NCBI GenBank assembly: GCA_029573725.1
Contig: JAKQDQ010000042.1
Coordinates: 777 to 64,776 of the forward strand
Direction of reading: 5' to 3'
DNA length: 64,000 bases
Source of the DNA: Verrucomicrobiota bacterium
GTDB taxonomy: Bacteria; Verrucomicrobiota; Verrucomicrobiia; Limisphaerales; JADLHS01
The position numbers and the translations under genes were made by a program. Numbering within the stretch: the stretch's first letter is position 1; each line of letters begins with the position of its first letter. Of this stretch, positions 40,150 through 49,224 are shown piece after piece. The notes under the pieces are model-generated. The model saw only the letters and a list, made by a program, of their open reading frames with translations, did not search any database and was not told the origin of the DNA.

Positions 40150-40731
40150 TCACAACTCCACCTGAATCCGCCCTTGCATCATCACCCCCGGACTCAGTTG
40201 GCCTTCCACGTAGTGATGCACGCGCAGCCAGATGAACGTGTCCACCGGCCATTCGCCTCCCTCGCCCGGACCATCCCACGACCCGTGCACGGCTGCATAC
40301 GCCGTCCCAATCGACGGCGTTAAATCACCCATCACCAGCGTTCCCGGCGTCATCACCGCGATGAAGCGCAGCCATCCATGCGCGTTCACCTCCTCCGCGC
40401 CCAACGGTCGCGTCGCCCACACCAACCACTTCACGCCCGGCCCAAAGTTGTCCTCCGCCCGAAAACCCACGAACCCGGCGTTCTCCGTAAACGGCCCGGC
40501 ATCGCGCAGCGATAAACCGCCATCCGACCACGTTGCCTCTCCGGGCAGCACCGCCGGATTCGCCGCGTCACCCGCGAGCGCCCGGTTGCGCAACACCCTC
40601 GTCATCGCCTTGCGCCCGCTCACGCGCCGCACCGTGCCATCAGCCAGCAGCACCGGATTGTTCTTCGCCCACGCGCTCCACGCCCGACGTTGCGTTTGCG
40701 TCAGGGACTTCCATTCCTTCGCCGCTTTCAT
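40150..40731 (-). CDS. hypothetical head-module protein
   Basis: The start MKAAKEW overlaps the portal stop (ATGA). 193 aa, no motif recognised. Confidence 0.45.
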   Translation of the reverse strand: MKAAKEWKSLTQTQRRAWSAWAKNNPVLLADGTVRRVSGRKAMTRVLRNRALAGDAANPAVLPGEATWSDGGLSLRDAGPFTENAGFVGFRAEDNFGPGVKWLVWATRPLGAEEVNAHGWLRFIAVMTPGTLVMGDLTPSIGTAYAAVHGSWDGPGEGGEWPVDTFIWLRVHHYVEGQLSPGVMMQGRIQVEL

Positions 40732-42218
40732 TGCGTTGCGTCTCCTTGTTCGCTTGCCATCGGCATTTGTTGACCGCGACAAACCAGTTGGTGCTCCTCC
40801 TCATTGGTGCGTCCCGGCGGCAACACTTCACCGCGCCGGAACAGCTCGCACATCGTCTCCCGGCTGATCGCCCCCGCCTGCCACGCGGCCACGACGGCCG
40901 TGATCTCATCACTCGACATCCCCTTCGTGCTGAAGTCCGAGTTGAGTTCCATCAACACGACGTCTTCACCAATTTCCTCAGGGCTTTCCTCGGTCGAGTT
41001 CCACCAATAAACCCAGCGCAACACGTGCGTCAGTGAATCACTCACACTCAACGACACCGCCGACAGCACCGAGTTTTCACCGCTTTGACGAAGTTCGATC
41101 GCATCGGCGGATTCGCCCACGCGCTTCTGTGCTTCGAGCATTCGCGTGCCAAGCACCGCCATGAGCCGTTCATCACGATCCATCGCCCGTTCAAACGTCG
41201 TCAGCCCTTGGCCCGTGAACTCCAGGAAACCAGCCGTCGCACCGGGAGTTTCCGCCACCCACGCAGTGCTTGAGCCGATTCGCAGCGTCGCCGACTTGTC
41301 GAACCCGCTCACCCAGGCCGTCGGCAGTGCGGTAAAATGCAGGCCATGCTTGTAGTCGGCATTCAGCCGATAGTGATCCAGATTCACCGCGATGATGTCC
41401 GCCAGCGGCAGTTTATCCACGCATGGCTGGCAGTTACGCGGACCATGAAACACGAACGGAATCAGTGGCAGCGGTTTCCCCAGGCGAAGCGGAATCCGGG
41501 TTTCGACTTTGACCCATTCGGGTTTGCTGCGCTTGGACTTCGACTCCTGGCGCTGCCAGATTTCCACCTGATAAAACCATCCGGTATTCTTTTCGTCAGA
41601 ACTTTTGGCTCCCTTCACGAGTCGCAACACCCGGAGTTGTTCCACTTCCTTGACGACGAAAGGATCCTCCTGACTCTGCCCCGTCTCACTCAGGACGAGC
41701 AGGGTCAGAACATTCCGACCATTCACCCGTTCCGTACGCCAGTTGATGATTTGTTCCACTTGGTAGAGTACGGCATAGGCGCGACGTTCCACGTCACCTT
41801 CCCAATCCACGAGTGTCCCGGCCCGACCCACCGTGATGACCTCACTGACGATGTTCTTCGCGTAGGATTCCAGCGGCGTGCCGAGCATGTCGGCATCATC
41901 CCGGAATCCCGCGAGTGCCTTGCCCACACCGGACTGGTCGTCCGGCAATTTCACGGCGGACTCGCGCCGGAAGATCAAACCCACGAAACCATCCACCGTG
42001 CGGGCCGTGGCATTGAAGAAGGAAGCACGGGATTTGTAGGCGGCATATTCGGTTTCGGATTGCGAGTCGAGGCGCGGCAGATACCGGGTGCCGGCGGCCT
42101 TCACCGCGTCCTCGCCCGCAAAAACATCCCGCGCCCGCAACCACGCGGCGGCGTTGGCATCGTAATCAGGATGGGTCGAGTTGACCGGCACGCGCGCACC
42201 GTAGCACGTCATTTTCAC
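40728..42218 (-). CDS. phage portal protein (DUF4055-like)
   Basis: 496 aa. The N-terminal pattern HPDYDANAAAWLRARDVFAGEDAVKAAGTRYLPRL...EYAAYKSRA is typical of DUF4055-type portals. Confidence 0.8.
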   Translation of the reverse strand: MKMTCYGARVPVNSTHPDYDANAAAWLRARDVFAGEDAVKAAGTRYLPRLDSQSETEYAAYKSRASFFNATARTVDGFVGLIFRRESAVKLPDDQSGVGKALAGFRDDADMLGTPLESYAKNIVSEVITVGRAGTLVDWEGDVERRAYAVLYQVEQIINWRTERVNGRNVLTLLVLSETGQSQEDPFVVKEVEQLRVLRLVKGAKSSDEKNTGWFYQVEIWQRQESKSKRSKPEWVKVETRIPLRLGKPLPLIPFVFHGPRNCQPCVDKLPLADIIAVNLDHYRLNADYKHGLHFTALPTAWVSGFDKSATLRIGSSTAWVAETPGATAGFLEFTGQGLTTFERAMDRDERLMAVLGTRMLEAQKRVGESADAIELRQSGENSVLSAVSLSVSDSLTHVLRWVYWWNSTEESPEEIGEDVVLMELNSDFSTKGMSSDEITAVVAAWQAGAISRETMCELFRRGEVLPPGRTNEEEHQLVCRGQQMPMASEQGDATQ

Positions 42219-42901: not shown

Positions 42902-43453
42902 ATGTGCACCGATTACGAAGGCCCAAAGCCGGAACAAAAAGCAGAGATCGAGCGTAAAATCCGATGTGAGGTTTTCGGCTTTGTCCCGCGTGCCCGTGTT
43001 CGCCCCACTGACCCGGCGCCAATCATCATTCCGGTGGAAGATTCTTTGGCCTGCTCCGAAATGCGGTGGGGCTGGACTGTGCCGTGGGACAAAGCACCAT
43101 TGGTCAACGCCAAGAGTGAAACCCTCACCACGCTTGCCACGTTCAAGCCCCACTTGGATCAGCGCTGTCTGATTCTCGCCCGCAGTTTCAAAGAAGGCGG
43201 CGCGCAATTTCACCAATCCGGATGGGGCGTGTTCTGTCTGGCCGGTCTCTGGCGCGAGGAATCCAGCGGCCCGCGCTTCGTCATGCTCACCACCACACCC
43301 AGCGAATCCGTCGCCCCCTTTCACAATCGGATGCCGTTTCTGCTCCGGGAAGAACAATTCCCCGACTGGTTGCGCGGCGATTACCTCAAAGTGCTGGCCG
43401 CACCGGACAAGTCGCCGCTGGAGAAATTCCAGAAGCAGCCCGAATTGTTTTAG
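42902..43453 (+). CDS. SOS response-associated peptidase (SRAP/YedK family)
   Basis: It starts with MC (the catalytic Cys2) and has the conserved NAKSET and HNRMPFLL motifs. 183 aa. It is on the strand opposite to the structural genes. Confidence 0.8.
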   Translation: MCTDYEGPKPEQKAEIERKIRCEVFGFVPRARVRPTDPAPIIIPVEDSLACSEMRWGWTVPWDKAPLVNAKSETLTTLATFKPHLDQRCLILARSFKEGGAQFHQSGWGVFCLAGLWREESSGPRFVMLTTTPSESVAPFHNRMPFLLREEQFPDWLRGDYLKVLAAPDKSPLEKFQKQPELF

Positions 43454-43513
43454 TTCACTCGCGCCGTCCCGCTTTTCAAGCAGTCGAGACCGGTGAACAC
43501 CAATCGTCCTTCG

Positions 43514-43726
43514 TCACCATCGTCGTTTTGGACCAACGTAGATCGCGTTACACCGACAACGCGCCTGGAATGCTTTTGGAATCGGCGACCGCATCTTGAT
43601 CTCGGCCACGACACGGCATTGTTGGCAAATCAGCAACGCCACGAAATCTTCGGATTCGTAACCGACACTGACCTTCACGCGGGAAGTTTCACACGCAGCC
43701 ACGTAAACTCGTTCTTCGCTGGCCAT
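43514..43726 (-). CDS. small zinc-ribbon-like hypothetical protein
   Basis: 70 aa with a non-degenerate composition and CQQC...CRC cysteine pairs. Its third-position GC is lower than the host's. Confidence 0.35.
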   Translation of the reverse strand: MASEERVYVAACETSRVKVSVGYESEDFVALLICQQCRVVAEIKMRSPIPKAFQARCRCNAIYVGPKRRW

Positions 43727-44742
43727 TTCAACGCGCCGGGTATTCGGTCGCCCTCGAAAGACAAAATTGGCCCGCTGCGCTCGAAGGGAAATTAGTTCGC
43801 GCTACATGGCTCGCCGGTGCGGCTCGCACTTCGCGTGCTCAACCACCACGAGGCGCGCAACCATTCACGGTTTCCATGTGCGAACGTCACGCTCGCGGCC
43901 CTTTCGCTCCAGCGCCCACGCATCGAACGCCGCAGGTTGTCGAACGTCGGTCGTGCATTCCAACCGTTCAGGTTGGCGGATGTTTTAGGCGCGCTGTCAG
44001 GCATGGGGATGGAATGACGCCGGCTCGTCGCTTCGCTCCTCGAATTGCAAGGTGGCCCGTGCGGCACGCACCAGCCTGGCTTCACAGAGCGGACACTTGC
44101 GCTTCGGCGCGGCTGCCCCGCTTCGCAGTTCAGCCGACCTCGCGCCAGGTGACGCGGTTCGGGCAGGCGCTGGCCGCCAGATGATCCTCACCGCTTCCGC
44201 ACTGTTCCGCCCGCGCCACTGGCCGGACTCGTCAGCTTTCCGCCCGCTCCATTCGCTGCCGCACTCCGCTTCGCCGACTTCGCTGGATGCTCTCGCTCAT
44301 TCCGACGGCCGCAAACTGCCGAGACCGGCACGGACAGCGGTGCTCCCAAAAACGCAAGACGCCGAAGGCCGCGATGCTCCGCATGTCGCCCAGGACAAGA
44401 CCACCGGAATAGCCGTGAGCCCGCCCAGCTTTCGCTGGCGCGAAACTGGCCGGACTCACTGATGGTGGCCATCCGCAAGGATGTCTGAGACTTCGTCGTC
44501 AGGCTGCGGTCCTGCTACCGATCCACACCCTGATCCCCTGGTGGCCGTCCGCAAGGACCTCCGCTCTGCCGTCGAAGACTCAGAATGGTTGGCTTCGCGT
44601 TGGCGCGACTGCGCCCGGTGGCCGGTGACGCTGTCACCCGGCAGACCCGGCCAAAGGCATCGGCTCGCGGCGGATTGGCACGAACGACCGGCGAGGCTTA
44701 CGGTGCTCGTTCCTGCGCGCCTGTGGCCTCGCCTTGCGTACC

Positions 44743-44886
44743 GGGGCGACACACAACACATATTGTGCGTTCGTTCCCTCGTGCCTCGGTCACACCTTTA
44801 TTCCTGATCGCACCGACACTCCTCACTCGTGAGCCGCTTCGGTGCGGGAATAAAGGGTCGCACAATATGGCGTTGTGTGTAGCCCC
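44743..44886. repeat. 144-bp nested imperfect inverted repeat (IR2)
   Basis: GGGGCGACACACAACACATATTGTGCG (44743-44769) pairs with CGCACAATATGGCGTTGTGTGTAGCCCC (44859-44886). Inner stems are ACCTTTATTCC/GGAATAAAGGGT, CGCACCGA/TCGGTGCG and CTCAC/GTGAG. Confidence 0.8.
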
Positions 44887-45370
44887 GCTGCTTCACTGTC
44901 ACGCTGATTGCTTCCTGGATTCCCCATCCGGCACGCGACTGCCCTCGTCGCGTGGCAATCACCGCGCCAGCTCGCAGGCATCCTTCGCGCCAACACCGCC
45001 GCTCCGCATGATGGCCAGTGCGGCACGCACCAGCCGGGTCTGCTTGCCCCAATAGCTCGCCGGTACGGCTCGCACCCCCACCCAACCCCAATGCTCGACC
45101 CCTTCCGTCCCCAAGGGGTCGTCGCGCGCAAAGTAGTTTGCTCGCTTCGCTGGTTGGATCGCGTGGCTGCAGGATGCAACCACGCGCCAATGGAAGGCCG
45201 GACTCCGGCTTTTCAGGTCCGGCTTTTTCTGCTCCGCGTTTCTCTCCATCGCCCTCCCGGCCTCGCCGCAAGACCAGCCCGCCCACTCGTGGCGACCTTC
45301 TGAAGACCACTTCCACGGGGGAGGGCTGGCGGCTCGGCGTTGTCGTGAAGGGCGACGGACAGAAGACGCA

Positions 45371-45949
45371 ATGCAGAGCAGAAAAAAAAAGACCATGAAA
45401 ACAAATAAACAAAACTATGAAGGGGCTCGGGAGCAGATCCGCAATACTCAGCAGACCAACACCAGCACAGTTCGACAAGAAGTTGATGCAGTGGTGGCCA
45501 AGTTTTCCACCCCGACCGGTGGAGACGTGACCGCGCAGGACATCGCGGAGCAGAAAGCCCGTGATGCGAAGCAAGCCAAGGTTGATAATCGCTTGCCGAT
45601 TGATTCCCAGGCACGGAAGCAGAACCGGACGCTTCCGACCCCGAAGGTGTTGAACCTTTTGTTGACCACGTTGCCGGACGTTTACCGCGCCGCCGAGGTT
45701 GTCGGGAAATGGGTTTGGGTGACGTTCAAGGAGCAACCCGCCGCCGAGATTCGGCAGCACTTGGCCCAGCTTGGCTTCCACTGGAATCGTGAGCGGCAGA
45801 CATGGCAGCACCCCTGCGGCCAGTTCCGCTTGAGCAGCAACAACGACCCGCACGAGAAGTATTCCAGTTACTACCCCGCCCGGATTCGTCGCAGCACCAA
45901 AGCACAGACCCCGGAGATGATGGCCAGTGGCGCTGCCACCGCCGCGTGA
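45371..45949 (+). CDS. hypothetical protein (phage/plasmid accessory type)
   Basis: 192 aa. The C-terminal segment VGKWVWVTFKEQPAAEIRQHLAQLGFHWNRERQTWQH resembles a small domain I have seen on plasmid/phage accessory proteins. An alternative start is at 45395. Confidence 0.5.
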   Translation: MQSRKKKTMKTNKQNYEGAREQIRNTQQTNTSTVRQEVDAVVAKFSTPTGGDVTAQDIAEQKARDAKQAKVDNRLPIDSQARKQNRTLPTPKVLNLLLTTLPDVYRAAEVVGKWVWVTFKEQPAAEIRQHLAQLGFHWNRERQTWQHPCGQFRLSSNNDPHEKYSSYYPARIRRSTKAQTPEMMASGAATAA

Positions 45950-45993: not shown

Positions 45994-46209
45994 ATGACGA
46001 ACTCCTACACCCTCCGAGCCGGTGACCTTGTCGAGTATGCCGGCCAGCCGTGCCGCGTGGTTCGCGTGAGCGAATCCGCCGCCCTTGTCGCCGTGATTCA
46101 AAAGCCGCGCACCATCACCCCGCGCTTTGGCAAGCCGGTGACCATTCAACCACGCCCCAAGCTGGAGCGCATTTCCCCAAACTCCGAAATCCCCATCCTT
46201 AACCGCTAA
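45994..46209 (+). CDS. small hypothetical protein
   Basis: 71 aa (MTNSYTLRAGDLVEYAGQPCRVVRV...), SH3/KOW-like beta pattern, tightly spaced with its neighbours. Confidence 0.4.
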   Translation: MTNSYTLRAGDLVEYAGQPCRVVRVSESAALVAVIQKPRTITPRFGKPVTIQPRPKLERISPNSEIPILNR

Positions 46210-46213
46210 CACT

Positions 46214-46675
46214 ATGAACCAAGACCAGAATATCAATCCAGAGGAAGCGCTCCGCGCCGTTTTCGGCGAACCGCAGCAGATCGCCGACGGCATCACCGCG
46301 TTCGGCCCGGTCGTTTACAGTTACACCCGCGCGCAGGCCGTCGCCGACGGCGTGCAAGTCGAAGTCACCAAGACCGCGCAGGAAGCCGGAATCCGCTTCC
46401 CGGTTTTTCTCACCCGCACCGTATTCGACGCCTACGTTGCCGTGCCGCCCGACGTGACCGGCCAAGACGAAGCCGGGCGACTCTGGGACATCGTCTGGAT
46501 GTTGCGCTTTGCCATCCAGCGCACCAGCCGCGGAGTTGCGCGCCTGCCGTTCGCGCTCTACGTGCGCAACGACAACCGCGCCGCCAAGCTCATCAAGTTG
46601 GTCGCCGTCGCTGGCCCGCTCGACATTGACGACCCATCGCCCGCCATCACCGTGATGTTGCCGGACGAAGATTGA
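46214..46675 (+). CDS. hypothetical protein (possibly DUF6573-like plasmid/phage accessory protein)
   Basis: 153 aa with a clean, non-degenerate sequence. The family assignment is from memory only. Confidence 0.5.
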   Translation: MNQDQNINPEEALRAVFGEPQQIADGITAFGPVVYSYTRAQAVADGVQVEVTKTAQEAGIRFPVFLTRTVFDAYVAVPPDVTGQDEAGRLWDIVWMLRFAIQRTSRGVARLPFALYVRNDNRAAKLIKLVAVAGPLDIDDPSPAITVMLPDED

Positions 46676-46721: not shown

Positions 46722-47057
46722 ATGACTTCCCAATCATTTCTTGGATTCGAGCAGCAGACCCGCGACGCCGAACTCGCCGCCGCCAATGCCAAGCTACAGG
46801 CCAAGCTCGCGGAGCAGGCCCAACGCGCCATCCGCAAGCGACAGGAGGAAATGGCCAAGAACACCCGCCGATGGAAGCGCGAGGAAGCCACGCGCAAGCG
46901 GAACGACATCCTCGTTGCTCAGTGCGGCATCAATTGGTATTCGCGCCGCCGCGATGCGGGCATCTACTGGACGCACTGCAAGACTTGCGGCCAGTTGCTC
47001 CACTACACCGACGACAAAAACGCGAAGCCCCAAGTTTGCGCCGGTCGCAAATCGTAG
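46722..47057 (+). CDS. coiled-coil + zinc-ribbon hypothetical protein
   Basis: 111 aa with a charged helical N-terminus and C-terminal C..W...HCKTCG...C cysteines. Confidence 0.45.
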   Translation: MTSQSFLGFEQQTRDAELAAANAKLQAKLAEQAQRAIRKRQEEMAKNTRRWKREEATRKRNDILVAQCGINWYSRRRDAGIYWTHCKTCGQLLHYTDDKNAKPQVCAGRKS

Positions 47058-47132
47058 CCCCCCCATATTTTCCAGCCTGCCGCGATGACACCCTCGCGGC
47101 TGGAGGCAGGTGCGGCTCGCACAAAAATTTTT

Positions 47133-47172
47133 CGCCTGACGGCTCGCGCTCGTCAGGCGAATCCATTTTTTC
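47133..47172. terminator. bidirectional rho-independent terminator between the plus-strand island and terL
   Basis: CGCCTGACG (47133-47141) pairs with CGTCAGGCG (47151-47159). ATTTTTT follows on the plus strand and AAAAATTTTT precedes it, which gives a T-run on the minus strand. Confidence 0.55.
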
Positions 47173-47233: not shown

Positions 47234-48631
47234 TCACAGCCCCCGCAACTTCCGCTCGCTGATCGTTCGGGTTTTCGTCGCCACCAAGTAGCGGAGACAG
47301 TCCGCGCAGTCATCGCCCCCAACGCCATCCTCGTCCGCGTCCACCTTGAGCACGTCCTCGGGCCGGTTTGGATCGTGTTGGAGTGCCGGCAACGTCTCAA
47401 TCAGCCGCCCGCAACGGGCGTGAATGAATAGTGTCGGCCTGATGCCTCCCTCAATATCACCTAACCCTTGCATAACTTCTGCCCAACCGTTCACCCGGTC
47501 GGTGTTGGCTGGACGCAGCGTGATACCCTGTTTCGCATATTGCGCGGCAATCGTCGTCCCGTCCGATTGCCGGCTGAAAACATCCGCGCCGGCCACGAAC
47601 CGTTTCAGGTCCGCCAGCGTCAATGCCCGGTCGCCAATCTTGTGCCGCGCGAGCATGGCCTTGATCGCCGCCGCGTGCCGTTGCGGCAGCCACAACCGCT
47701 CCGCGTGTTCATCCACGACATAGGTGTTTCCATCGCCATCGCGGCAGCCGAGCAGGCAGACCGTGTAATGGACGTGGCCGTAGTCAAAGGCACAGAACCA
47801 CTCCACGGCCCGCGCATCGTCGAAGTCCTCGACGACGTGAACGTCGCGCCGGAACTGCGTGAAGAACTGACCGGCGGCAATGTCCCAATCACCATCGAGC
47901 CAGGCGCGGCGTTGCCAGCCCGTCAGACCTTCCAGAATCCGCCGGTATTCCGGGTTGTTGAACGCATTGTCGTCGACGCGGGCCGGAATGAAGCGCGTTT
48001 CCGTCTCGCGCCGCTCCAGCATCGGCTGGACGAATCGCTTGCGATACCACGCATGACCAACGCCGCCGGGATTCGTGGTGGAGTAGATGCGCGGACGCCA
48101 GTTTGGCTTGGACGACCGGCAGCACGTCGTAATGTCTTGAAACTTCCGGCTCGTCAGTGTGGTTGCTTCCTCGATCCCAATGACATCGTATTCCAAGCCC
48201 AGGTAGGCATCCACGTCCCGGTCATTCTGGAAATGCCCGGCAATGATGCGCGAACCATTCGCGAAGGTGAGGATGCCGCGGAACGCGCTGAACTCATGTG
48301 GCAGCCGGTTGAACAGCCGTTGCCGGAGATCCTCGAAGTGCTCCAGGTTCGCTTTGCCCACTTTGCGGAGCAGCAGACATTTCAATCCTGGCACACGCTG
48401 ACAATCGTCGGCGCCGACTTGGGACAACATCCAGTGCGACTTGCCGCCGCCACGAGCGCCACCGTAACCGACTTCCGTCGGCCCGTCGGGGCGGTCGCAC
48501 AATCGGGCGGCAGCACTGGCAACCAGTTGACGCTCTTGCAACCACAATTTCGCGGCCACGAAGTTGCGGGTTTGATCCTCGGGACAGCCCGCCGCAATCG
48601 CGGCGTTCAGGAAAATTTCACGCTCGTTCAT
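47234..48631 (-). CDS. terL: terminase large subunit
   Basis: 465 aa with Walker A-like GGARGGGKS, Walker B LLLRKVG..., the ATPase coupling motif GIEEAT and a C-terminal RNaseH-like nuclease region (FDYGH..., DADEDG). Confidence 0.9.
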   Translation of the reverse strand: MNEREIFLNAAIAAGCPEDQTRNFVAAKLWLQERQLVASAAARLCDRPDGPTEVGYGGARGGGKSHWMLSQVGADDCQRVPGLKCLLLRKVGKANLEHFEDLRQRLFNRLPHEFSAFRGILTFANGSRIIAGHFQNDRDVDAYLGLEYDVIGIEEATTLTSRKFQDITTCCRSSKPNWRPRIYSTTNPGGVGHAWYRKRFVQPMLERRETETRFIPARVDDNAFNNPEYRRILEGLTGWQRRAWLDGDWDIAAGQFFTQFRRDVHVVEDFDDARAVEWFCAFDYGHVHYTVCLLGCRDGDGNTYVVDEHAERLWLPQRHAAAIKAMLARHKIGDRALTLADLKRFVAGADVFSRQSDGTTIAAQYAKQGITLRPANTDRVNGWAEVMQGLGDIEGGIRPTLFIHARCGRLIETLPALQHDPNRPEDVLKVDADEDGVGGDDCADCLRYLVATKTRTISERKLRGL

Positions 48632-49224
48632 GGCTTCGCCTCCTGGACGTCAATCACCGGTTGCTCCGGGACAGCTTCCACCTTCGCGCTATACGCCTTG
48701 CGGATGGCAATCTCCCAATCCACATCAATCGTCGCCTTCACCGTGGTGTTGACCTCCTTCACTTCTGTCGGCATCCCTGCCGCCAGCCGACCGAGCTTGG
48801 TTGCCAGTTCCAGCACGCGGGCGATGCCTTCCAGCGTGCCGCACTTGGCTTTGTTCTTTTCCCACCGCGCCAACATTTCATCCGCCAGCGCGATTAGCTT
48901 CTTGTGCCGCTGCCACTCGGCGACTTTCACGGCTTCATGCACCTTGTTCCAATCGACCGCCTTTTCGAGCGCCAACCCTTCGATGGCTTCGCGCTCGATG
49001 GTCGCCAGGTGCGCGGCGTGAGCTTGCACCCGTGCCGGCCAGTCGAACCGCCGCGACCAACGTTCGATCATGGTCTTGGACTTGCCGTGCTGGACGGCCA
49101 CGACCGCCAGCGAGCGTTGTGCGCCAAGTTCTAAGTAGGTTTTGAAAGCCGCGAACGCCTTGTTGCTCTCGCGGGGTTGCTGTTCAAATGACAACGCTGC
49201 TGTTTCTTGCTTGCTCGATTTCAT
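48628..49224 (-). CDS. terS: terminase small subunit (HTH type)
   Basis: The start MKSSKQ at 49224 and N-terminal AFAAFKTYLELGAQRSLAVVAVQHGKSKTMIERWSRRFDW match the HTH pattern of small terminases. Its stop overlaps the terL start. Confidence 0.65.
   Translation of the reverse strand: MKSSKQETAALSFEQQPRESNKAFAAFKTYLELGAQRSLAVVAVQHGKSKTMIERWSRRFDWPARVQAHAAHLATIEREAIEGLALEKAVDWNKVHEAVKVAEWQRHKKLIALADEMLARWEKNKAKCGTLEGIARVLELATKLGRLAAGMPTEVKEVNTTVKATIDVDWEIAIRKAYSAKVEAVPEQPVIDVQEAKP

Follow-up and report, generated by a model that had tools for sequence, protein, structure and literature searches.

A modular, structured non-coding region, most likely a large RNA, between the terminase and portal genes of Verrucomicrobiota prophages

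Introduction

Here we describe a conserved stretch of DNA without recognizable genes (about positions 43690-45405) that lies between the large terminase and portal genes of a prophage in a Verrucomicrobiota bacterium (GTDB lineage Bacteria; Verrucomicrobiota; Verrucomicrobiia; Limisphaerales; JADLHS01). The DNA analysed, called the window throughout, spans 64,000 nucleotides (nt) of contig JAKQDQ010000042.1 (positions 777 to 64,776 of the forward strand; NCBI GenBank assembly GCA_029573725.1), and all coordinates are those of the window. We show that the region contains conserved base pairs whose compensatory changes stand well above controls, as they do in structured non-coding RNAs. Judged by sequence comparison, the region is a non-coding, conserved and modular structure of single-stranded nucleic acid. 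That structure is most likely an RNA read from the minus strand, and it most likely represents a new, uncatalogued family of large, modular structured non-coding RNA, of the same kind as the large ornate phage RNAs.

An initial annotation, made from the letters and their open reading frames (ORFs), had singled out 43727-45370 and offered two explanations, an undescribed phage-borne structured RNA or the remnants of degraded genes. The first is borne out by covariation, by pairing in sequences that played no part in deriving the structure, and by the absence of a matching Rfam family, while the second finds no footing in the data. The initial proposal nevertheless needs to be widened. The structure is phage-borne but not confined to prophages, it is built from two or more separable units, it is not related to GOLLD or ROOL, and the conserved unit exceeds the interval first marked.

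Bacterial and phage RNAs longer than 500 nt with extensive conserved structure are rare (OLE, GOLLD, ROOL, HEARO and raiA), and each of these has led to new biology, RNA-only nanocages being the latest example. With about 215 supported pairs, the family proposed here would exceed GOLLD in size and would come from a phylum with almost no phage biology; it would also account for a recurrent 1.5-kb unannotated gap in Verrucomicrobiota prophages.

Results

The region is conserved and non-coding

Homologous loci came from two sources. A search with gene X, the first gene of the neighbouring plus-strand cassette, returned one IMG/VR locus and 79 loci from Verrucomicrobiota metagenome-assembled genomes (MAGs), often several per genome; six further IMG/VR contigs were added (seven in total), and a first DNA pattern used on IMG/VR was too degenerate, with 114 of its 120 matches due to chance. 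A two-motif DNA pattern supplied the metagenome set: among the matches listed, 100 of 119 contain B4, one of the structural blocks defined below (at least 100 genuine). The stretch 43690-45405 is thereby found conserved in more than 180 loci (79 MAG, 7 IMG/VR and at least 100 metagenome loci), and several MAGs (e.g., MJ-time_bin-3030 and MFD09286.bin.2.119) each hold three to seven diverged copies of the prophage-type locus. Many metagenome contigs end within a B module, as expected of a repeat that breaks assemblies. A blastn search of the region against phage GenBank gave no match.

In the alignments, which are MAFFT-based and poor in the variable linkers, the non-coding stretch forms ordered blocks of 65-90% identity that can be aligned in dozens of the 79 MAG loci, and in a 32-sequence alignment its conservation equals that of gene X. 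The two differ in coding signal: the codon-position entropy ratio is 1.07 in the region and 2.71 in gene X, and the power at period 3 does not exceed 0.04 in the region, versus about 0.1. Only 16% of the indel runs in the region are divisible by three. Public gene callers leave 43727-45370 almost empty, and none of its ORFs matches Pfam or PHROG above the cut-off, in agreement with the initial description of an ORF-poor stretch with only Arg/Ala/Pro-rich shadows. The single trace of a protein family is a sub-threshold DEAD_assoc match of ORF 44481-44807 (E 6e-4; 20.1 bits versus a cut-off of 23.5), which falls in one of the least conserved stretches of the region and which we treat as chance. 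This match is all that speaks for decayed protein-coding genes, a reading that we reject because the region lacks three-base periodicity and keeps frame in so few indel runs. With no other family match, and with conservation at the level of a functional gene in more than 180 loci, we regard its probability as close to negligible.

Compensated base pairs extend across the region

The region was divided into blocks, B0 to B5 (Table 1). Single-sequence folding gave z = -11.0 for 44660-45010, and z = -5.9 (plus strand) and -6.8 (minus strand) for 45195-45400; 43850-44600 is unexceptional (z = -0.7), and there chance is possible on one sequence alone. An assumption-free scan of all column pairs in the alignments recovered stacked, compensated helices across the whole region, with covarying pairs such as 44761:44867 (CG 15, TA 14, AT 3) and 44492:44576 (TA 16, CG 16). 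Within the B4 alignment, 96.5% of the cells at 58 pairs are paired, versus 25-50% with slid partners; 33 pairs are doubly compensated, none of 500 shuffles reaches the observed value, and the covariation score is 0.341 versus 0.131 for shuffled and 0.01-0.06 for slid alignments. The B5 alignment behaves likewise (45 pairs, 96.6% of cells paired, 20 doubly compensated, 0 of 500 shuffles), and in a plus-strand alignment of 51 B4 sequences 20 of 33 pairs are doubly compensated. Most of the stems listed by the initial annotation proved to be conserved helices by this comparative evidence, and the stem formed by TCTGAGACTTCG and CGAAGACTCAGA covaries strongly.

The structure also holds out of sample. 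Derived from the MAG loci, it was applied to unseen metagenome sequences, 29-79 per module. Seventy-nine new B4 domains keep 96.6% of the pairs at 53-60% sequence identity, and the other blocks keep 87-96%, versus 24-50% with slid partners (for B1, 94.6% of cells versus 24-49%). One candidate was discarded: the long-range pairing of 44310-44318 with 44968-44976, the two most conserved stretches, shows inconsistent compensation in loci L064, L023, L030 and L034.

Catalogued RNA families do not cover the locus. Scanning the whole window and 14 homologous loci with cmscan at the gathering thresholds of Rfam 15 (4227 models) gave 0 matches. This leaves GOLLD (conserved 3' domain), ROOL, HEARO, OLE, raiA and IMES without a match, as well as group I and II introns, RNase P, tmRNA, phi29 pRNA, c4 antisense RNA and self-cleaving ribozymes. 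A permissive scan of 43300-45600 (E<=10) returned only chance matches to microRNA or small RNA models, and a full-text literature search found no prior description of the family.

The minus strand is the probable functional strand

Consensus folding of the whole region with RNAalifold yields 215 pairs, 86 of them covarying, at -250 kcal/mol on the minus strand, versus 171, 69 and -179 kcal/mol on the plus strand, and in every block the minus strand has more pairs, more covarying pairs and the lower consensus energy. Within helices that are Watson-Crick elsewhere, positions that read G·U on the minus strand, and would read A·C on the plus strand, number five in B4 and about eight in B5, with one of the opposite sense. 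Conserved G-tracts also lie on the minus strand. We therefore hold with good confidence that the functional strand is the minus strand, which is that of the terminase and portal genes and is divergent from gene X.

Several observations weigh on the other side. The core helices are unusually wobble-poor for an RNA, and helices formed by Watson-Crick pairs only give balanced wobble counts (G·T 50 versus A·C 55), so that the strand call rests on about 13 positions together with the RNAalifold totals. B1 shows no strand preference, and an analysis of wobbles at helix extensions was noisy and contaminated by short chance helices. Neither a sigma-70-like promoter nor an intrinsic terminator, including one after B1, was found at conserved positions on the RNA strand, in scans that are uninformative in this phylum; with the same limit, no sigma-70 consensus was found in the 40-56 kb part of the window. 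In locus L293, a TTGACA-N15-TAATTT sequence upstream of the RNA was found by hand and lies outside the spacing rule of the promoter scan. Finally, a minus-strand transcript that starts from the terminase gene must cross four plus-strand genes in antisense.

The strand-neutral core helices would also suit a plus-strand transcript, in which B1-B5 precede the gene X operon as a very long, structured 5' leader, with a promoter in B1 and with B5 sequestering the ribosome-binding site. Read in plus order, B1 opens every unit (B1-B5-gene X and B1-B2-B3-B4), the end of B5 coincides with the start codon of gene X, and the small GTGCG-GCN-CGCAC hairpins described below are oriented 40:1 in the plus sense. 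For every block, however, the plus strand forms fewer pairs at a less favourable consensus energy, and the embedded G·U pairs become A·C mismatches (at 45273:45326, in 51 of 66 sequences). Moreover, no plus-strand gene follows B1-B4 in one of the phage arrangements (arrangement II, below) or in the island contexts. We consider this leader very unlikely and retain the minus strand.

Structural modules

The features of the region and its neighbourhood are collected in Table 1. On the RNA strand the order is B5, the G-tract hairpin, B4, B3, the 11-bp hairpin, B2, the linker hairpins, B1 and then B0.

Table 1. Structural modules of the conserved region and features of the surrounding prophage. Block extents are alignment blocks; out-of-sample values are the share of alignment cells that pair in unseen metagenome sequences.
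Feature	Block extent	Position	Strand	Description
B0	43690-43850	43690-43850	minus	Conserved non-coding block beside B1; repeated TYGAGC / GCGAAC motifs
B1 domain	43850-44010	43855-44003	listed as minus, undecided	Helices 43855-43861:43895-43901 and 43909-43917:43989-43997
Linker hairpins (block B12)		44203-44196:44093-44086, 44151-44144:44102-44094	minus	From global minus-strand RNAalifold; out of sample 93.8%
B2 domain	44190-44470	44212-44344	minus	About 26 pairs; out of sample 92.0%
11-bp hairpin (block B2b)		44415-44459	minus	Conserved; out of sample 95.8%
B3 domain	44475-44700	44484-44584	minus	17+5+4 bp hairpin; out of sample 92.9%
B4 domain	44735-45015	44667-45002	minus	About 330 nt; closing helix 44667-44687:44981-45002 around a multi-branch core
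G-tract hairpin		45070-45125	minus	GACCCCUU-GGGGACGG-AAGGGGUC, then G-tract run GAGCAUUGGGGUUGGGUGGGGG; just 5' of B4 in the RNA sense
B5	45200-45400	45210-45401	minus	Bulged hairpin of about 190 nt; 45-49 pairs
Portal protein (DUF4055)		40728-42218	minus	Pfam and synteny; downstream neighbour on the RNA strand
SRAP peptidase gene		42902-43453		Accessory; between terminase and portal
70-residue ORF		43514-43726	minus	CxxC...CxC pattern; 3' of the RNA, same strand
Gene X		45395-45949	plus	184 residues; first gene of the divergent cassette; period-3 signal
orf71		45994-46209	plus	Gene X cassette
DUF6573 gene		46214-46675	plus	Gene X cassette
orf111		46722-47057	plus	Gene X cassette
Strong intrinsic terminator		47131-47161	plus	12-bp stem, then T-run; closes the gene X cassette just before the terminase 3' end
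Large terminase		47234-48631	minus	Pfam Terminase_6N and synteny; upstream neighbour on the RNA strand
Small terminase candidate		48628-49224	minus

Beside B1, B0 (29 homologues aligned with nhmmer and MAFFT) occurs in 30 metagenome loci and, in minimal loci, is followed after about 90 nt by the start codon of the portal gene; it is absent from the integrase-primase elements described below. The B1 helices enclose an invariant CCAACC-GTTCA-GGTTGG hairpin (43960-43976), a stem already noted by the initial annotation. In many loci (L027, L017, L060, L061, L014, L035, L057, L223, L287 and L295) B1 (155 nt) is doubled as direct repeats, and its copies bracket accessory cassettes, either orf166/SRAP or the whole gene X cluster, which suggests that cassettes are exchanged through recombination at B1.

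B2 holds the most conserved sequence of the locus, TTCCGACGGCCGCAAACTGCCGAGACC in the plus-strand reading. Next to it, the CCAGC-TTTC-GCTGG stem (44425-44438) is the tip of the 11-bp hairpin. Near 44395, in the stretch that separates B2 from B3, two to four tandem units of about 50 nt (...CUAUUGCUG..GUCUUGGCCGGGCGAAGCCUCGCGG...) are present in most relatives and fewer in the window; this unit is a variable-number repeat inside the RNA. The base of B3 is the TCTGAGACTTCG/CGAAGACTCAGA stem, whose first strand lies where it was first reported (44484-44495) and whose partner lies at 44573-44584 rather than 44563. Similarly, a GGTGAC-GCT-GTCACC stem exists as described, at 44624-44638 rather than 44606.

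The core of B4 consists of a 19-bp helix (44750-44768:44860-44879), a second helix (44895-44911:44955-44971) and an invariant GUGACAG. The neighbouring G-tract hairpin combines a covarying stem with a conserved loop, UUGGGGAYGGAA, and three conserved G-tracts; of 74 instances, 54 form six or seven of the seven pairs, and in 52 the three G-tracts come next. The inverted repeat in which the region was said to end is confirmed (I2, 45224-45240 / 45370-45386) as the outer stem of the B5 hairpin. The 5' arm of B5 is complementary to the stretch of gene X that holds its ribosome-binding region and its start codon (45395-45397). Under B5, the start codon and the A-run upstream of it are invariant, and the overlap with this hairpin also fixes the nucleotides of the first gene X codons, third positions included.

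The direct repeats of the initial annotation are also present, with small offsets (D6, 44463/44539; D8, 44212/44439; D2/D3, 44047/45006). The two GGTGGCCRTCCGCAAGGA copies and the GTGCGGCACGCAC copies do not occupy conserved positions; they represent short hairpin motifs found repeatedly in variable regions. The repeat TGGTGGCCRTCCGCAAGGA (44463-44481 and 44539-44557) is restricted to the window and its closest relatives and can form a plus-strand CAUCC-GCAA-GGAUG hairpin; in L034 the motif appears as an inverted pair at another site, in a variable loop of B4, and behaves as a small mobile motif. A further repeat, ACTGGCCGGACTC (44218-44230 and 44445-44457), is kept in relatives, and its copies are strands of different conserved helices (in B2 and in the 11-bp hairpin), as might arise from internal duplication or from a recognition motif common to both. 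The hairpin motif GTGCG-GCN-CGCAC, often preceded by (A)TGGTGGCC, occurs nine times in the window versus 2.0 expected, with sites at 43817, 44059, 45018, 45063, 47110, 51801 and 53892, all on the plus strand. Across the 79 related loci, 40 copies are on the plus strand and one on the minus strand, at variable, non-homologous positions, like a hairpin of the repetitive extragenic palindromic (REP) type or a protein-binding hairpin.

The host element is a prophage whose packaging and head genes are on the minus strand. Its terminase-portal interval consists of the plus-strand gene X cassette, the gene-free stretch and the SRAP peptidase gene. The gene X protein is 100% identical to a database entry from a Verrucomicrobiota bacterium and belongs to a large family (1532 database homologues) with a conserved C-terminal motif, WVWVTFKEQP...GFHWNRERQ.WQHPCG. 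It has no match in profile searches of Pfam, NCBIfam, PHROGs or PDB, and a Foldseek search of its AlphaFold model, which is poor (predicted local distance difference test, pLDDT, 64), against PDB gave nothing at E<=0.001. The 70-residue ORF next to B0 is kept only in L013, and L001 loses its ATG yet keeps the surrounding nucleotides; the ORF probably lies outside the conserved unit.

Arrangements and genomic contexts

Three arrangements are found in phage loci. Arrangement I, that of the window, runs portal, B0 B1 B2 B3 B4 B5, gene X cassette, terminase. Arrangement II runs portal, B0 B1 B5, gene X cassette, B1 B2 B3 B4, terminase, with B4 beginning about 150-180 nt after the terminase stop codon. 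In the third, seen in L295, the module stands on both sides of the gene X cassette. By synteny, B5 always adjoins gene X. The modules are thus separable: B5 belongs with gene X, and B4-B1 forms a unit of its own.

About half of the longer metagenome loci encode no protein of this phage. B4 stands alone in seven or eight loci, in a repeat-rich non-coding region next to small ORFs, a DnaG-type primase of about 1000 residues and a tyrosine integrase, and its closing stem is intact there, with a perfect 33 bp in L229. Seven such loci are integrative elements (L212, L229, L250, L269, L304, L311 and L316; e.g., L229:1606-8500) that carry a tyrosine integrase, a DnaG/Toprim primase of about 1000 residues and two small ORFs, with the lone B4 embedded in a non-coding region of about 1.2 kb that has T-rich direct repeats. 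No packaging genes were found in these elements. They look like satellites of the phage family, a label that we use as an analogy only. B1-B4 also occurs beside Type ISP restriction enzymes and a polyvalent-protein kinase, or beside a DNA methylase-HNH-ResIII helicase operon, and in L239:81-4228, L293:462-3842 and L207:1123-8252 such defence-type operons are immediately preceded by the RNA module, which is oriented divergently from them. In other phage-less loci it is found beside housekeeping genes at contig ends. Nearly all phage-less loci share with the window a divergent layout, in which the RNA strand is directed away from the adjacent operon (in the window, from gene X).

The company of a primase in seven loci, where B4 lies in a repeat-rich non-coding region, raises the question of whether the structure acts as single-stranded DNA, in the form of a priming or initiation signal, or of an origin-associated element, recognised by a primase or helicase. 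Covariation that is almost purely Watson-Crick and the perfect closing stem in L229 would fit such a role. However, known single-strand initiation (ssi) signals measure about 100-150 nt, compared with 1.7 kb here; a tailed double-stranded DNA phage need not pass through a single-stranded stage here; a site within the structural operon is unlike an origin; and G·U pairs make up about 9% of the pairs in B5, which is typical of RNA. We consider a single-stranded DNA signal highly improbable.

The unrelated contexts, the long inverted repeats that bound B4 and the recurrence of small hairpin motifs might instead reflect elements that act as duplex DNA, either a pile-up of palindromic repeats (of the REP type or resembling miniature inverted-repeat transposable elements) or a cos/pac region common to a helper phage and its satellites. 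P2 and P4 offer the analogy of cos sites as a packaging region shared by helper and satellite; the locus resembles it in lying near the terminase gene and in being shared with satellite-like elements. In duplex DNA, however, nested multi-branch helices with arms 100-330 nt apart are impossible. The wobble pairs are asymmetric between strands, order and synteny are conserved rather than scattered, and structure is preserved over sequence, with 89-96% of pairs kept at 53-60% identity. DNA-level elements are, in our judgement, also highly improbable. A structured RNA from the minus strand remains the reading that we carry into the discussion.

Discussion

Our best guess is that the structure is a phage life-cycle RNA co-opted by satellites. 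Gene order suggests how such an RNA could work, and to the following four steps taken jointly we give a little better than an even chance. The RNA would be made with or alongside the transcript of the late packaging and head genes. B5, antisense to the translation-initiation region of gene X, would silence or process the gene X cassette. The B4-B1 part of about 1.2 kb would, like GOLLD and ROOL, play a part in the lytic programme as a stable RNA that associates with proteins or with itself. Lastly, satellite-like elements would have copied the autonomous B4 core and would thereby gain access to the same process of the phage. It counts against this account that its mechanism is drawn from gene order alone. 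A more specific possibility, which appears quite unlikely, is that the RNA is a trans-acting structural part of head assembly or DNA packaging, or forms a self-assembling RNA particle like the cages of GOLLD and ROOL, with the integrase-primase elements carrying B4 copies that hijack that process. If true, this would reveal an RNA-level currency between helper phage and satellite.

The same position in the late operon would also suit a purely cis-acting spacer of the late mRNA, in which B5 and the closing stem of B4 act as processing or stabilising helices of the RNase III type and uncouple the terminase and portal messages from the antisense stretch over the accessory cassette, with no function in trans. 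In every phage locus the element sits between the terminase and portal genes and shares their strand, its own promoter or terminator was not detected, B4 in arrangement II stands close behind the terminase stop codon, and the helices are long and near-perfect. However, B4 or B1-B4 is also found outside late operons, divergent from integrase-primase or restriction operons, and must therefore be transcribed on its own there. Furthermore, about 215 conserved pairs and invariant single-stranded motifs far exceed what a processing site needs. A spacer acting only in cis is thus unlikely, and we continue to favour an RNA with a role in the phage life cycle.

The locus offers functional handles. It has a fixed site between packaging-motor genes, one of its modules is antisense to an accessory gene, and an autonomous domain of about 330 nt is common to satellite-like integrative elements and is also found near restriction systems. 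Since the domains are separable and abundant in metagenomes, function and three-dimensional structure would be directly testable.

Among known systems, GOLLD and ROOL bear the closest comparison with the predicted RNA. Both are encoded in prophages and phages, and expression of GOLLD is reported to rise during lysis (PMC12286853). Like them, the present locus is large, multi-domain and phage-borne, shows heavy covariation, has no known function or protein partner, and appears associated with the lytic or structural portion of its phage genome. In contrast to them, it matches no Rfam model and measures about 1.2-1.7 kb, versus roughly 600-800 nt or more. GOLLD and ROOL are frequently located next to tRNA genes or tRNA islands, whereas ARAGORN found no tRNA in the 64-kb window and the neighbours in phage loci are the terminase, the portal and the gene X cassette. 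The locus further differs in being a chain of separable domains at a fixed terminase-portal site in Verrucomicrobiota, with one domain common to integrase-primase elements.

B5 invites a second comparison, with P22 sar, lambda OOP and the c4/CI RNAs of P1 and P4, as it is antisense to both the ribosome-binding site and the start codon of an accessory gene. Complementarity to the translation start is how sar blocks translation of ant, and on paper B5 would act like a cis-antisense RNA of the sar type. It is, however, much larger than sar (about 190 nt, with 45-49 pairs) and mostly continuous with a far larger predicted RNA, and, unlike c4 RNA, it has no match to the Rfam c4 model. The long helices also resemble RNase III processing sites such as the T7 R-sites and lambda sib, which are long, bulged double-stranded hairpins in intergenic parts of phage operons. 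The locus described here differs from these in having about ten times more pairs, conserved junctions and single-stranded motifs, and occurrences outside operons.

Two further systems share a setting with the locus. phi29 pRNA is a phage-encoded structured RNA tied to packaging, and the region described here lies between two packaging-motor genes. pRNA is about 120-174 nt long and restricted to phi29-like podoviruses with protein-primed DNA; our locus has no match to the Rfam pRNA model. ColE1 RNA II and ssi signals of the G4 type are structured nucleic acids located by replication functions, as B4 is beside a DnaG-type primase in seven loci. In the phage, by contrast, the element stands inside the structural operon, far from replication genes, and is far larger than either.

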